NCBI GenBank assembly: GCA_905370345.1
Contig: CAJPKE010000001.1
Location: 1 to 62,196, forward strand
DNA: 62,196 nt
Origin: Candidatus Saccharibacteria bacterium UBA6209
GTDB taxonomy: Bacteria > Patescibacteriota > Saccharimonadia > Saccharimonadales > Saccharimonadaceae
Direction of reading: 5' to 3'
Below, in pieces: positions 18,829 to 23,101 of the stretch (within the stretch, counting starts at the first letter, position 1; every line of letters begins with the position of its first letter). Below the pieces are notes generated by a model. That model had not been told where the DNA came from. It made no database searches and saw only the letters and a list, made by a program, of their open reading frames with translations. The position numbers and the translations under genes were made by a program.

Positions 18829-21342
18829 ATGACTAAAGTTCCACGCTTACTTGACACATTCACACCAAATCATTACAACCTAACTCTCGATTTAACACGC
18901 GCCGAGGAAAAAGAATTTTCTGGTACAGTTATCATTTCTGGCGATTCCATCAGCGAATCAATTTCGCTACATTCCAAAGGCTTAACAATTCAATCAGCCA
19001 CAATCGACAATCAGCCCGCCGACGTTTCATTTGGTGAGTTTGACGAATTGAGATTATCCCAGCCGAACCTTGAAAACGGAAATCACACAATTCACATCAA
19101 TTTTTCTGGAAATATTACCGACGCAATGCACGGCTTGTATCCTTGTTATTTCACTCACGACGGCGTTAAAAAACAACTTTTTGCGACTCAATTTGAATCG
19201 CATCACGCCCGCGAAGTTTTCCCTTGCGTTGACGAACCAGCCGCCAAAGCCGAATACGATTTGACGCTAATAACTCGCCCAGGGATAACAGTTTTGGGAA
19301 ATATGCCCGTAAAATTCCAGAAAGAAAACGGCGATTCTCTCACTACAACATTTGAGAAAACACCACGAATGAGCAGCTATCTTCTGGCTTTTGTCATCGG
19401 TGAATTGCACAAAAAAACCGCCCGCACCAAATCTGGCGTCGAGGTTAACGTCTGGGCAACGCCAGCTCAGAATGAAAATACATTAGATTTTGCGTTAGAT
19501 ATAGCCACTCGTTCAATTGATTTTTATGACGAATATTTCGGCGTCAAATATCCATTGCCAAAATCCGATCACGTAGCGCTTCCCGACTTTTCGTCTGGCG
19601 CAATGGAAAACTGGGGTTTAATCACTTACCGAGAAAGTTGTTTACTAGCAGACCCAGAATTAACCCCAGAATCATCCAGGCGCTTCATCGCGACTGTGAT
19701 TGCGCACGAACTTAGCCATCAATGGTTCGGCAATTTGGTTACCATGCAGTGGTGGAATGATTTATGGCTCAACGAAAGCTTTGCCAATATGATGGAATAT
19801 GTAGCAATTGACGCACTCCAGCCAGATTGGCGCATGTGGGAAGATTTTGCCACGAATGAAGTAACGGCCGCACTCAGACGCGACAGTTTGGACGGCGTTC
19901 AATCCGTTCAAGCCGACGTCAATCATCCAGACGAAATCAGCACTTTGTTCGACCCGGCAATTGTTTACGCCAAGGGTGGACGACTGCTAGTTATGATCAG
20001 GAAGCTTATTGGCGAAGAGGCATTTCGCGCTGGACTTAAATCATATTTTGAAAAATTCGCGTATAAAAACACTGTCGGAAATGATTTATGGCAAGAATTG
20101 GAATCAGCGAGCGGTCAGCCAATTGTCAATCTAATGAACGCTTGGATTTCCCGACCTGGCCTTCCTGTCGTATCAGTTTCAAACAGTCACGACGCGGCGA
20201 TTTTAAGTCAGGAACGCTTCTTCATCGGCGAACACCGACCATCTGACGCATTATGGCCGATTCCATTATTCGCAAACCAGCTGCTTGACATAAAAATCTT
20301 GAATCAAAAAGAAACCACCGTTTCTATTGAAAAGCCATTACAATTAAACTGCGGATTAAGCGCCCACTTCGTCACCAAATATGACGAATCCACTCGCGAA
20401 TATTTATTGAAAAACATTACAGAATTGCCGACTTTGGACAAGATTTGCATTTTACAAGACGCGACGATACTCGCCCGCGCTGGATTTGAAAACTCGGCGT
20501 CACTACTTCCATTGGCATTGTCGCTAAAAACCGAAACCAACGAAAAAGTCTTCGGGATGGCGGCTGGTGCTTTGACGGAGCTACGAAAATTCGTCGATGA
20601 TAATGACGCCGCCAGAGATTCATTAAAGAAAATTTCTGGAGAATTTGCGCGCGCCACATTTGAAGATCTTGGCTGGGATGAAAAAGATGGAGAATCGGAC
20701 GACAACCGCGAGCGACGCACCACGGCTTTGAGCTTGATGATGTATAGCGAAGATGAAGAAGTTTTGGACGAGGCAAAAACGCGTTTTGATAGTAATAAAT
20801 TAGAAGACTTACCGACAGAAATTCGAGCTTTAATTATCAGCGCAAACGTAAGACATTTCGAGACGTCAGAGATGATTGAAAATCTCTTTGCCGCATATAA
20901 AAACACGCCGTCGAATGACATGCAGAATGATATTGCAATTGGACTAACTTCTACCAAAAACCCTGAAACCGCAGAAAAAATTCTTGCCAACATTAAAGAT
21001 TCCAATGTTATCCGACCGCAAGACGCCAGCCGTTGGTTTGTATATTTAATTCGCACCAGAGAAAGTCGCCAGATTGCTTGGAATTGGCTGAAAGAAAACT
21101 GGGCATGGGTCGAAGATACATTTGGAGAAGATAAAAGTTACGACGATTTCATTCGCTATGCAGCTACGGCGCTACTAACTCCTAATGAACTTAACGACTT
21201 TCGACAATTCTTTGAACCGATGGAAAATATTCCAGCCCTCGCCAGAACGATTAAGCTGGGAATTACCGAAATATCAGCACGCGTCGAGTTGATTGAGCGA
21301 GATAAGGCAAACGTGCTCTCTGCTTTGCAAACAACACTGTGA
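18829..21342 (+). CDS. pepN: M1 family aminopeptidase
   Basis: GAMENWG, HELSHQW, LWLNESFA, ERAP1-like C-terminus. Confidence 0.93.
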   Translation: MTKVPRLLDTFTPNHYNLTLDLTRAEEKEFSGTVIISGDSISESISLHSKGLTIQSATIDNQPADVSFGEFDELRLSQPNLENGNHTIHINFSGNITDAMHGLYPCYFTHDGVKKQLFATQFESHHAREVFPCVDEPAAKAEYDLTLITRPGITVLGNMPVKFQKENGDSLTTTFEKTPRMSSYLLAFVIGELHKKTARTKSGVEVNVWATPAQNENTLDFALDIATRSIDFYDEYFGVKYPLPKSDHVALPDFSSGAMENWGLITYRESCLLADPELTPESSRRFIATVIAHELSHQWFGNLVTMQWWNDLWLNESFANMMEYVAIDALQPDWRMWEDFATNEVTAALRRDSLDGVQSVQADVNHPDEISTLFDPAIVYAKGGRLLVMIRKLIGEEAFRAGLKSYFEKFAYKNTVGNDLWQELESASGQPIVNLMNAWISRPGLPVVSVSNSHDAAILSQERFFIGEHRPSDALWPIPLFANQLLDIKILNQKETTVSIEKPLQLNCGLSAHFVTKYDESTREYLLKNITELPTLDKICILQDATILARAGFENSASLLPLALSLKTETNEKVFGMAAGALTELRKFVDDNDAARDSLKKISGEFARATFEDLGWDEKDGESDDNRERRTTALSLMMYSEDEEVLDEAKTRFDSNKLEDLPTEIRALIISANVRHFETSEMIENLFAAYKNTPSNDMQNDIAIGLTSTKNPETAEKILANIKDSNVIRPQDASRWFVYLIRTRESRQIAWNWLKENWAWVEDTFGEDKSYDDFIRYAATALLTPNELNDFRQFFEPMENIPALARTIKLGITEISARVELIERDKANVLSALQTTL

Positions 21343-21359
21343 TATATTATGCCACATTT

Positions 21360-21602
21360 TTGACAAAATCTATTGACATTTTATACTATTAGTGGTATAA
21401 ATAGACACAGCTTTTGTTGACAAGTTGAGTAAATCCTTGTCCGGAAGCGCACTTTGACAAGTGAAGAGAATCTATAAGACGAAGGTGAGATTTTGCGGTA
21501 TTCTAATAAGTACCTCGAAACCTCATCTTCGATCTATGCCATCCGGGCGTTGATCAGTGTTTCCAGCACGGGCGTTCGCCCAGATGAGGAGAGAGTACTA
21601 CA
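21360..21602 (+). promoter_or_regulatory. Cassette A: sigma70-type promoter and ~195-nt structured leader
   Basis: Tandem TTGACA (21360, 21373), 17 bp, TGG-TATAAAT; hairpins 21408-21427, 21480-21531, 21540-21586; boxA-like GCACTTTGACAA 21449-21460; SD AGGAGAG 21587-21593. Confidence 0.75.
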
Positions 21603-21989
21603 ATGTCGTTTATTACCGATGAAGTCAAGGCAAAGAGGGCTGCCGACATCAATGATAGGAGGAAAATACTGGAGACACTCAGGAGAAATGAAGTCTCCCG
21701 TTTCCTCGAAGAGGGAATCCCCACACTGTGCGAGGAAGCCAGGAAAGCTGCAATCAATGAATACCTTATGAAAGGCAAGCTTCCAGACGAGATCCGTATC
21801 TATGATCATGACCGTCGAATCACCTCAGCAGTCGCAAACAACCCCGAGTGTCGTAAGGCACTCCTTAAGAAGCTCCAGAGCCTCGAAGAGAAGGTTCGTG
21901 ACGTTGAATTCAGATACACAGAATCCAACCCGTGGGTAATTACTCCCGATCCTTGCGTTGTCGTCTACTTCTCCAACAACCAGGAGTAG
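21603..21989 (+). CDS. Orphan soluble protein (cassette A)
   Basis: 128-aa ORF with own promoter and SD; no family recognised. Confidence 0.75.
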   Translation: MSFITDEVKAKRAADINDRRKILETLRRNEVSRFLEEGIPTLCEEARKAAINEYLMKGKLPDEIRIYDHDRRITSAVANNPECRKALLKKLQSLEEKVRDVEFRYTESNPWVITPDPCVVVYFSNNQE

Positions 21990-22052
21990 CAGGCAATAAC
22001 CTCGCAAACATGGCGAGTCTGTAGACTCTCCGTCAGATTCTCTCACTTGTCG

Positions 22053-22109
22053 TGTTTGCTCCATAGATGTGTATCTATGCCGATGAGTCGAAAACGACGA
22101 AAGCGAACA
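22053..22109 (+). ncRNA. Type III hammerhead ribozyme (U4C core variant)
   Basis: TGTTTGC-T-C^-CATAGA-TGTGTA-TCTATG-CCGATGA-GTCG-AAAA-CGAC-GAAA-GCGAACA: stems I, II and III all pair; core matches consensus except position 4. Confidence 0.82.
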
Positions 22110-22111
22110 AT

Positions 22112-23101
22112 TTATTCCAACACCACACATTCCTCGACTACAGGCGGATTTCCATCAACAGAAATTGCCAGCATTTGCATATCACAGCTTTCATACTGCG
22201 CATTTTTGGCAATGAACATCTCTACAGAAAAACGCATTTGCTGCTGTTTTTTATTTGTAATTGCCGCCAAGCCATCGCCGAAATTGTCATTTTTACGATA
22301 TTTGACCTCTGTAAAATATAGAACATTATCTTTTTTACTAACAATATCAATTTCGCAATACCGTGTTCGCCAATTCCGTTCTATAATCTCATGACCATCA
22401 GCGACCAACCAATCCGCCGCCGCTTGCTCACCCTTATCGCCAATTTGACGCATCGTGTCTTTTTGCTGGTTTTTAGACCTTCCATCATCAAGCGCATTCT
22501 GCGAGTTCACCTCAACATTAGCATATTTAGTCAACGGCGCAAAACTCAGCCGATGTAGCGGAGTTACACCCAGATTATCAATAGCCGCTCGGTGCTTCGC
22601 CACACCATAACCAACGTGCGAAGAAAAATCATATCCCGGATAAATATTATCCTGCTTCGCCATAAATTTATCACGAGCCACCTTAGCAATAATCGACGCC
22701 GCCGAAACGCTCGGAATCAGACCGTCGGCTTTCGCTATAATTGTTACATACTTTTCTAGCGGTGTACCCGCCAAAAAATTGACCGTCCCATCGATAATAA
22801 TCTCATCAAACGTCAAGCCGCTTTTCTGGCATTTCGCTTGAATTTCTTTGACTGCGCGCCGCGTTGCCAGCTTAAGTGCCTCGCTCATCCCTATTTCATC
22901 CAGCTCCTCAGCAGGAACCCAGCCCAACGCCCAAGCCGACGCTTGCTCGCGAATCTTCTCATTGAGCAATTCACGGCGTTTTTTAGTCAATTTTTTACTA
23001 TCATCAAGCCCTTCAATTTCAGCGCCGCCCAAAACCACCGCGCCAATCACCAACGGCCCCGCCCACGCGCCGCGCCCAACTTCATCAATCCCCAGAATCA
23101 C
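22112..23101 (-). CDS. rnhB: Ribonuclease HII fused to a YraN (UPF0102) domain
   Basis: GIDEVGRG, DSKKL, SVSAASIIAKVARD, HRLSF; C-terminal GDKGEQAA...NWR...EIDIV...EVKYR. Confidence 0.9.
   Translation of the reverse strand: MILGIDEVGRGAWAGPLVIGAVVLGGAEIEGLDDSKKLTKKRRELLNEKIREQASAWALGWVPAEELDEIGMSEALKLATRRAVKEIQAKCQKSGLTFDEIIIDGTVNFLAGTPLEKYVTIIAKADGLIPSVSAASIIAKVARDKFMAKQDNIYPGYDFSSHVGYGVAKHRAAIDNLGVTPLHRLSFAPLTKYANVEVNSQNALDDGRSKNQQKDTMRQIGDKGEQAAADWLVADGHEIIERNWRTRYCEIDIVSKKDNVLYFTEVKYRKNDNFGDGLAAITNKKQQQMRFSVEMFIAKNAQYESCDMQMLAISVDGNPPVVEECVVLE

Follow-up and report, generated by a model that had tools for sequence, protein, structure and literature searches.

A leader-trailer helix and a competing decoy hairpin as a possible three-strand switch of a hammerhead ribozyme in gene cassettes of Saccharibacteria

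The stretch of DNA considered here (the window) comprises 62,196 nucleotides (nt) of contig CAJPKE010000001.1, from assembly GCA_905370345.1 of Candidatus Saccharibacteria bacterium UBA6209, a genome of 0.69 Mb in 46 contigs. Positions 21343-22111 of the window hold a cassette with one small open reading frame (ORF) and, at its 3′ end, a hammerhead self-cleaving ribozyme. A leader strand in the 5′ untranslated region (UTR) of this cassette is complementary to a trailer strand in its 3′ UTR, and this long-range complementarity between both UTRs of one transcript is conserved. The same trailer can pair instead with a nearby decoy strand, in a hairpin that takes in one strand of hammerhead stem III. 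We give an even chance to the reading that the three strands form a switch which gates the hammerhead, with the leader releasing stem III from the decoy. Such gating is well supported by comparative evidence and by thermodynamic models, yet unproven and incomplete. The elements of the switch are the following:

21455..21473, + strand: leader strand, with the conserved core UGACAAG
22004..22018, + strand: decoy strand (strand A), from repeat search, pair checks and folding
22035..22052, + strand: trailer strand, the partner of the leader, checked pair by pair
22045..22059, + strand: strand B, the partner of the decoy, made up of the 3′ part of the trailer and the 5′ strand of hammerhead stem III (22053-22059)
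22053..22109, + strand: type III hammerhead, from Rfam (RF00008, Hammerhead_3), with its pairs checked

An initial annotation, made from the sequence of the window, had claimed a leader-trailer duplex of 18 base pairs with one bulge, enclosing the whole ORF and stopping at 22052, one base before stem III begins. All of this was borne out pair by pair. The helix of 21455-21473 with 22035-22052 has 17 Watson-Crick pairs and a terminal U·G, with A21465 bulged, and it ends directly against stem III, which starts at 22053. Chance does not account for it: the trailer (24 nt) paired with the upstream transcript at −29.9 kcal/mol, against −19.0 (standard deviation 2.3) for 1000 dinucleotide shuffles, none of which reached the native value.

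Related loci were collected by a pattern scan for the hammerhead subtype, which gave at least 118 stretches, nearly all of them in records titled Candidatus Saccharibacteria; among the matches listed, 121 with the stem I hairpin were kept and 7 without it were dropped. The loci gathered in this way, via the hammerhead and among the matches listed, are related to one another, and the counts given below refer to non-independent samples. The search for leader partners covered 112 hammerhead sites with at least 500 nt upstream, using as the query the 24 nt that precede the stem III strand. For 82 of the 112 sites, a leader of the GACAAG type at a distance of 303-1008 nt proved to be the best upstream partner, with a median leader-trailer energy of −25.1 kcal/mol. 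The remaining 30 were made up of chance pattern matches, contigs that end short of the leader, sites with no clear partner and a few divergent partners; in L071 and L069 the partner has a quite different sequence, yet it matches well.

From 75 distinct leader regions, 54 distinct leader/trailer combinations of 28 sequence types were obtained. After removal of the constant core, the variable parts alone paired with a mean of −11.36 kcal/mol in the cognate combinations versus −7.59 (standard deviation 0.45) in permuted ones, and none of 20000 permutations reached the cognate mean. Since a MAFFT alignment of 49 3′ UTRs left the decoys of different types out of register, pair counts from alignments were limited to nine orthologous cassettes, those that share the ORF family of the window, and covariation across types was measured with custom scripts. 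Within the nine orthologues, 94.4% of the cells in the 18 leader-trailer pairs were paired, compared with 30-47% for slid partners, and two pairs had changed on both sides (AU/GC and CG/UA, four sequences each). The core covaries as well, as GAUAAG/CUUAUC and GACAGG/CCUGUC. The initial annotation had made its proposal depend on compensatory conservation, and both the leader-trailer helix and the decoy helix turned out to be conserved with compensatory change in related loci. As a separate observation, the leader strand of three cassettes that lack the 5′ UTR motif RAGATH-10 (L041, L099 and L129) runs into the Shine-Dalgarno sequence; leader-trailer pairing would also hide the ribosome binding site there.

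Concerning the decoy, a local hairpin of 15 base pairs had been claimed to sequester the 5′ strand of stem III, and such a hairpin is indeed present. The pairs between 22004-22018 and 22045-22059 are 12 Watson-Crick and 3 G·U (80% complementarity of the inverted repeat with G·T counted as a mismatch), and their energy of −21.7 kcal/mol compares with −10.9 (standard deviation 2.2) for mononucleotide shuffles, none out of 1000 reaching it. The decoy mimics two sequences: with its 5′ part the 3′ strand of stem III, and with its 3′ part, through G·U pairs, the leader core. When the trailer end was matched with its best local partner, at least five of the six stem III bases were paired at 66 of 75 loci. 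A variable linker (A, GC, AU or ACUUUU, among others) separates the CUUGUC core from stem III, and the decoy changes along with it. For cognate decoys the mean was −13.74, against −9.99 (standard deviation 0.52) for permuted ones, and none of 20000 permutations reached the cognate value. In the lineage of the window, a C-to-U change in the stem III strand is compensated in the decoy (GC in five sequences, AU in four), and the 3′ strand of the ribozyme keeps its G (CG in five, UG in four). The decoy was stronger on the sense than on the antisense strand in 20 of 21 types (−20.1 versus −13.7, p=3e-6), with a wobble tally of 149 G·U to 27 A·C. Judging from these sequences, the decoy helix is clearly an RNA-level feature, specific to the mRNA strand.

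The two helices compete for the trailer. In the window, they are mutually exclusive over 8 nt; stem III has its entire 5′ strand covered by the decoy and cannot form together with it. The leader helix, which ends at 22052, is compatible with stem III and abuts it. The 3′ part of the leader (21465-21473) is variable and pairs with trailer bases outside the decoy helix, so that it constitutes a toehold. In 61 loci that have both helices, the private pairs of the leader on the distal trailer (the toehold) had a median of 8 and those of the decoy a median of 6, the latter consisting of the linker plus the stem III strand; the trailer bases common to both helices formed G·U pairs in 20 of 581 cases with the leader and in 93 of 581 with the decoy. 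In 56 of these 61 loci, a gap of 0-1 nt separated the leader helix from the stem III strand. Read from the sequences, the layout is that of a toehold strand-displacement switch, in which the leader would be the favoured invader and the ribozyme arm would be freed.

Folding models were run on the window and on 27 types. With the 3′ UTR and ribozyme of the window alone, the minimum free energy (MFE) structure was the decoy (−37.6 versus −30.8 with stem III forced) and the probability (P) of stem III was 0.00; when the leader strand was supplied to this 3′ region, the model gave P = 1.00. The MFE structure of the full-length transcript contained the leader helix together with stem III (−235.9 versus −225.8 with the decoy forced), with P = 0.93 for the leader helix and P = 0.77 for stem III. 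Among the 27 types, stem III had P below 0.1 in 22 when the 3′ region was alone, and P above 0.5 in 19 when the leader strand was supplied; 14 types, including the window, were both OFF locally and ON with the leader. In whole transcripts, deletion of the leader lowered the P of stem III by more than 0.5 in 13 of the 27 types. Models of the cleaved product kept the leader helix over the decoy in 24 of 28 types, so it seems reasonable to take the decoy as a transient or leader-absent state and not as the final 3′ hairpin.

The mechanism proposed on this basis is the following. The cassette would be one copy of a modular expression unit of Saccharibacteria, ordered as promoter, 5′ hairpin, leader, 5′ UTR regulator (RAGATH-10 in this copy), variable small ORF, decoy close behind the stop codon, trailer and 3′-end-forming element (a type III hammerhead in this copy), with the trailer as the pivot of a three-strand RNA switch. 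In the OFF state, the trailer would zip with the nearby decoy while being transcribed; the 5′ strand of stem III would be swallowed and the ribozyme would stay unfolded. The leader shares its core with the decoy, with A-U where the decoy has G·U, and adds about eight private pairs to the distal trailer. It would seize the toehold and displace the decoy, whose 6-7 remaining private pairs would then lose to the ribozyme's own 3′ strand. In the ON state, the leader-trailer helix would stack on stem III, and the hammerhead would fold and cut after C22061. The product would be an mRNA of about 650 nt, with its UTRs clamped non-covalently and with a 3′ cyclic phosphate. We infer that kinetically the decoy comes first and the leader second, that cleavage depends on the leader, and that protection of the ends is what is gained. 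The closed RNA foreseen in the initial annotation has to be understood in this restricted sense: a covalent circle is unsupported, because the unit has a single ribozyme and none upstream of the leader, which leaves no 5′-OH end for ligation, and the RNA would be closed only by the non-covalent clamp.

The ribozyme at the end of the cassette is organised as follows:

22053-22059 with 22103-22109, + strand: stem III
22062-22068 with 22073-22079, + strand: stem I
22087-22090 with 22095-22098, + strand: stem II
22080-22086, + strand: core, CCGAUGA, in which position 22081 (U4) is C
after C22061, + strand: predicted cleavage site

A sensitive search aligned 22054-22108 to positions 1-54 of the 54 positions of the Rfam Hammerhead_3 model. 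The three-helix type III layout is present: loops close stems I and II, and stem III opens onto the flanking sequence. The U-H of the cleavage site is present as U22060 and C22061, and A22102 pairs with U22060 in the MFE structure (A15.1-U16.1). The hammerhead named in the initial annotation is there, with some departures: its 31.8 bits (E 9.8e-05 in a 901-nt region) lie under the gathering score of 48.5, its core (CCGAUGA) deviates from the conserved CUGANGA ... GAAA by the U4C change, and its stem III contains a U·G pair. Within the hammerhead family, and among the matches listed, U4C occurred in the window and in L126 (same type) only, the others reading CUGAUGA; three further matches to the CCGAUGA pattern (L015, L060 and L082) are unrelated sequence. 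Four other relatives of the cassette type of the window have U at the U4 position, and position 22081 is U in all four sets of RNA-library contigs; these contigs, from public RNA runs, hold at most 0.10 of the sampled words and cover relatives of the cassette. In the part of PMC3088659 that deals with this change, U4C is said to lower considerably the activity in vitro and yet to support viroid infectivity. On account of U4C and of the stem III U·G, cleavage by the hammerhead of the window may be weak. The second hammerhead of the same genome scored 41.8 bits, and the Hammerhead_3 gathering score was reached by no hammerhead at 21 related loci; a standard annotation by the Rfam cut-off would overlook the whole subgroup.

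Several observations weigh against gating of the ribozyme as the role of the switch. One is the pair of departures just described, U4C and U·G, in the window ribozyme itself. Another is that two RNA-library contigs bridge the cleavage site, which indicates the presence of uncut RNA or DNA and no more. In the predictions for the 27 types, eight stayed OFF when the leader was supplied, and five were not OFF locally. In the window, the model with the leader deleted and the ORF kept still formed stem III with P = 0.69, because the trailer then paired with 21583-21599, in the Shine-Dalgarno region; the need of the leader for ribozyme folding, as initially claimed, is supported in the models by the isolated 3′ region and by the 14 switching types, and not by this transcript. 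It should be added that nearest-neighbour equilibrium models are lenient on long-range closure and silent on kinetic order. The leader helix, for its part, is nearly all Watson-Crick and carries no strand signature (sense stronger in 14 of 28 types, weaker in 12), so the strand test alone does not separate an RNA helix from a DNA-level repeat, and the RNA-level nature assigned to the leader helix from sequence rests on its context.

The last of these observations comes from cassettes without a hammerhead. With the promoter, the 5′-terminal hairpin (P0) and the leader of the window as the query, same-genus cassettes were found, eight with a hammerhead (the window counted) and eight without. All seven hammerhead-less cassettes examined (L132, L134, L145, L146, L147, L150 and L151) keep the leader-trailer helix (−21 to −25 kcal/mol) and the decoy helix (−17 to −32), followed by intrinsic terminators; by eye, a terminator-like hairpin with a T run lies 3′ of the trailer in all seven, and a scan confirmed it in L151 and L145, the two on which it was run. 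Four of the seven have the covarying core GACAGG/CCUGUC. No other ribozymes were found in eight hammerhead-less loci at E up to 0.1. The genome of the window has four cassettes, two with a hammerhead (the window and L129 on contig 14) and two with a terminator (L151 on contig 18 and L145 on contig 20), and the latter two share promoter, P0, leader, decoy and trailer with the window. The hammerhead of L129 is canonical; this cassette lacks RAGATH-10, and its cargo ORF, about 250 amino acids long, looks membrane-like by eye. From these sequences, hammerhead and terminator appear to be interchangeable 3′ modules. Since the terminator cassettes keep the switch, it must serve something beyond the ribozyme, and gating of the ribozyme, as put forward in the initial annotation, is not its sole function. 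By analogy with hbs mRNA, the other job is most plausibly the control of leader accessibility.

This leads to the alternative that the switch serves first of all to control mRNA stability or translation, as a 5′/3′-UTR clamp like that of Bacillus subtilis hbs which would act regardless of how the 3′ end is made, with the overlap with stem III as a secondary matter which might time or silence the ribozyme or supply a 3′-terminal hairpin. We regard it as a possible explanation, of rather low probability. The hammerhead-less cassettes, two of them in this very genome, fit it well, with both helices, a covarying core of their own and terminators; so does the lineage of the window, in which the ribozyme is weakened (U4C, U·G) and the decoy was repaired by a compensatory change. 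Overlap of the leader with the Shine-Dalgarno sequence in L041, L099 and L129, the cassettes without RAGATH-10, points in the same direction, and there is a precedent in the 14-bp 5′/3′-UTR interaction that modulates the cleavage of hbs mRNA by RNase Y, as given in an excerpt of PMC5737220. On the other hand, the private pairs of the decoy are exactly the stem III strand plus the linker and covary with them, and the leader helix abuts stem III in nearly all loci; this is more integration than a bystander would need. A role as 3′ hairpin after cleavage is disfavoured by the persistence of the leader helix in the cleaved products. It is worth noting that the clamp is compatible with gating by the leader, and the two are not mutually exclusive.

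A terminating ribosome, instead of the leader, could also be what opens the base of the decoy, in such a way that only translated mRNAs are cleaved, or leader-trailer paired, or both. The spacing of the 3′ UTR invites this idea: in 58 distinct 3′ regions, the stop codon preceded the first paired decoy base by a median of 6 nt (interquartile range 3-14), while the decoy-to-trailer loop varied from 10 to 81 nt (median 44), and it is with its 5′ end that the decoy pairs to the stem III strand. In the window, however, the gap between the stop codon (which ends at 21989) and the decoy (which starts at 22004) is 14 nt, and ribosome footprints place such a gap beyond the reach of a ribosome on the stop codon. 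Moreover, short 3′ UTRs are expected anyway in a 0.69-Mb genome, the ORF ends were called mechanically, with about 12 of 58 outliers, and covariation of leader and toehold with the trailer would be left unexplained. We consider ribosome opening unlikely as the main explanation. Much more improbable is a processing stem for a double-strand-specific RNase of the RNase III type, trimming both mRNA ends: a long-range helix of 13-20 bp that encloses a functional RNA and is stacked on a further 7 bp does recall the leader-trailer stems around rRNAs, but it is short and bulged for RNase III, and the unit already has a 3′ cutter or a terminator.

The remaining elements of the cassette in the window lie upstream of the decoy:

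21360..21401, + strand: promoter-like region as a whole, with two candidates
TTGACA(21360)-16-TATACT, + strand: candidate 1, from a promoter scan, 11/12 matches
TTGACA(21373)-17-TATAAA, + strand: overlapping candidate 2, with TG in front, by eye
21410..21448, + strand: 5′-terminal hairpin P0, in the full-length MFE structure
21481..21530, + strand: hairpin alternative to RAGATH-10 P1, in the full-length MFE structure
21517..21596, + strand: RAGATH-10 RNA (RF03147), 79.8 bits versus a gathering score of 41.2, Rfam
21603..21989, + strand: cargo ORF, 128 amino acids, without known family or fold

The promoter arrangement is conserved 5′ of the 75 related leaders, and hairpins equivalent to P0, of other sequence, stand ahead of the leader strand at related loci. 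The RAGATH-10 alignment covers positions 1-82 of the 82 positions of the model, and the 3′ strand of its P1 overlaps the Shine-Dalgarno sequence. Upstream of it, the purine-rich mimic GAAGGUGAGAUUU (21481-21493) is able to pair with the 5′ strand of RAGATH-10 P1, an arrangement that recurs, by eye, at related loci. The segment 21481-21596 resembles an ON/OFF expression platform, in which case RAGATH-10 would be a translational regulator. RAGATH-10 was present in 10 of 151 sampled genomes of the family; a hammerhead lay about 400-560 nt downstream at 7 of the 10 loci, with unrelated ORFs in between, and RAGATH-10 reached its cut-off in 10 of 28 cassette types. No intrinsic terminator (G+C-rich hairpin plus U run) was found on the + strand between 21200 and 22300.

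A general role of the trailer as anti-Shine-Dalgarno, similar to that of icaR, was considered and rejected, since the comparison with shuffled trailers gave a median z of −0.64, with 0 of 21 below −2. Separately, a repeat search detected complementarity between the CUCUCC-containing stretch 22021-22031, in the decoy-trailer loop, and the Shine-Dalgarno region 21588-21598, and pyrimidine runs of this kind recur in further 3′ UTR types.

The cassette lies between ORF 18829-21342 and ORF 22112-23101, that is, as the single cassette of a slot between pepN (aminopeptidase N) and a convergent RNase HII-like gene (rnhB). The convergent ORF, on the − strand and of 329 amino acids, we take to resemble RNase HII fused to a C-terminal domain of the YraN/UPF0102 type. 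Hammerhead stem III ends 3 nt from its stop codon, and read-through past the ribozyme would therefore be antisense to this ORF. In relatives with PepN 92-95% identical, the cargo of the slot belongs to the family of the window, to two other families or to a RAGATH-10-less cassette; variants with different cargo and leader/trailer type are L034, L041, L054, L068, L081, L099 and L118. On sequence grounds, the slot behaves as a hot spot of cargo swapping, framed by the conserved promoter/P0 and by the hammerhead. Such exchange of cassettes between close relatives, together with the almost wholly Watson-Crick leader helix without strand bias, would be expected if the arms were a DNA-level inverted repeat (an inverton or a recombination site for cargo swapping) and formed no RNA helix; we find this scarcely credible, as no inverted copy was noticed in the 75 leader regions (5′ UTR forward by eye, ORF scan on the forward strand only), the arms have bulges and G·U pairs, the trailer arm is common to the strand-specific, RNA-level decoy helix, and the conserved stretches that homologous exchange could use, the promoter/P0 region and the hammerhead, are not part of the arms.

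By BLAST, the 75 cargo ORFs make up 27 families; most of the ORFs belong to no known family, and some of the mechanical ORF calls are doubtful. The cargo ORF of the window has nine homologues in related cassettes and no Pfam, PHROG or NCBIfam family. Its AlphaFold model had a predicted local distance difference test score (pLDDT) of 90.5, and a fold search with it gave no match (best E 0.21 in the PDB and 4.7e-3 in BFVD). Among 10 other cargo ORFs there were one Pfam match (Tad4) and two PHROG matches of unknown function, and an NCBIfam scan of nine of these 10 gave no match. The Pfam match is that of L022:3104-3499 to PF25186, with 27.4 bits against a cut-off of 25. Tad4, a phage protein family, inhibits type I Thoeris, and the same ORF also matches phrog_9822; the cassettes may thus carry phage-type counter-defence genes.

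As for known systems, the nearest are the mRNAs of B. subtilis hbs and Staphylococcus aureus icaR, in which a long-range helix, some 14 bp or longer, likewise joins the 5′UTR to the 3′UTR; there it affects how accessible the leader is, according to excerpts of PMC5737220 and PMC3868564, and here it may do the same. Unlike theirs, the 3′ strand here can also pair locally, with the decoy; the choice of partner is tied to a self-cleaving ribozyme or set before a terminator, and the module recurs around 20 or more unrelated ORFs; in addition, the complementarity of trailer and Shine-Dalgarno sequence that marks icaR is not general here. The silencing of ribozymes by alternative pairing is known from the HDV ribozyme, silenced by an upstream 'Alt' pairing which a hairpin further upstream relieves, and from those viroid hammerheads whose activity is confined to a transient fold. 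As in those cases, a strand of a ribozyme helix would be caught by a nearby complement and released by a third strand; the releasing strand here sits on the far side of an ORF, some 550 nt off at the 5′ end of the mRNA, and the system is chromosomal, bacterial and borne by a cassette. The 3′ UTRs of rodent Clec2 mRNAs contain discontinuous hammerheads, which likewise depend on pairing with a distant segment; there the distant segments are parts of the ribozyme, whereas the present ribozyme is contiguous and it is the decoy on which the distant strand would act. Engineered toehold-mediated strand-displacement switches and ribozyme switches exist too, and share with the present arrangement a private toehold, a common branch-migration core and an incumbent weakened by wobble pairs; the present one is natural, acts in cis and comes in many covarying versions.

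Hammerhead and twister ribozymes are associated with certain genes, and the name RAGATH reportedly goes back to Weinberg and colleagues in 2015. The window fits that association: one small gene lies there between a full-score RAGATH-10 on its 5′ side and a hammerhead on its 3′ side. The RAGATH-10 model of Rfam is the 82-nt 5′ motif alone; leader, decoy and trailer lie outside both Rfam models. No publications were found under the name RAGATH-10, and 'RAGATH' is absent from the main text of PMC5737381, its supplements not covered. Literature searches on RAGATH and on hammerheads with RAGATH or twister, Saccharibacteria, TM7, or alternative pairing of stem III gave, among the papers listed, no description of the system, and in the literature searched the hammerhead switch of leader, decoy and trailer is without a published description.

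A more far-reaching reading, which we put forward as tentative, is that of a natural toehold circuit coupling the 5′ end of the mRNA to 3′ end formation by a ribozyme. The decoy would hold the hammerhead off until the leader, perhaps with the first terminating ribosome, frees it, so that released mRNAs would be born end-clamped; the variable toeholds would be address codes that keep paralogous cassettes self-pairing; and hammerheads and terminators would be interchangeable in a cassette system that shuttles phage-like accessory genes through fixed slots. The role of chromosomal bacterial hammerheads is called an open question in the part of a 2019 review bearing on it (PMC6765202). Here the hammerhead occupies the position of the terminator of sister cassettes, and covarying helices wire it to the 5′ end of its own mRNA, which offers for it a specific and falsifiable function: regulated formation of the 3′ end, giving an end-clamped mRNA. 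Dozens of natural sequence variants are at hand to test the switch. For the ultra-small genomes of Saccharibacteria, the finding reveals a reusable UTR 'frame' placed around unrelated small genes.

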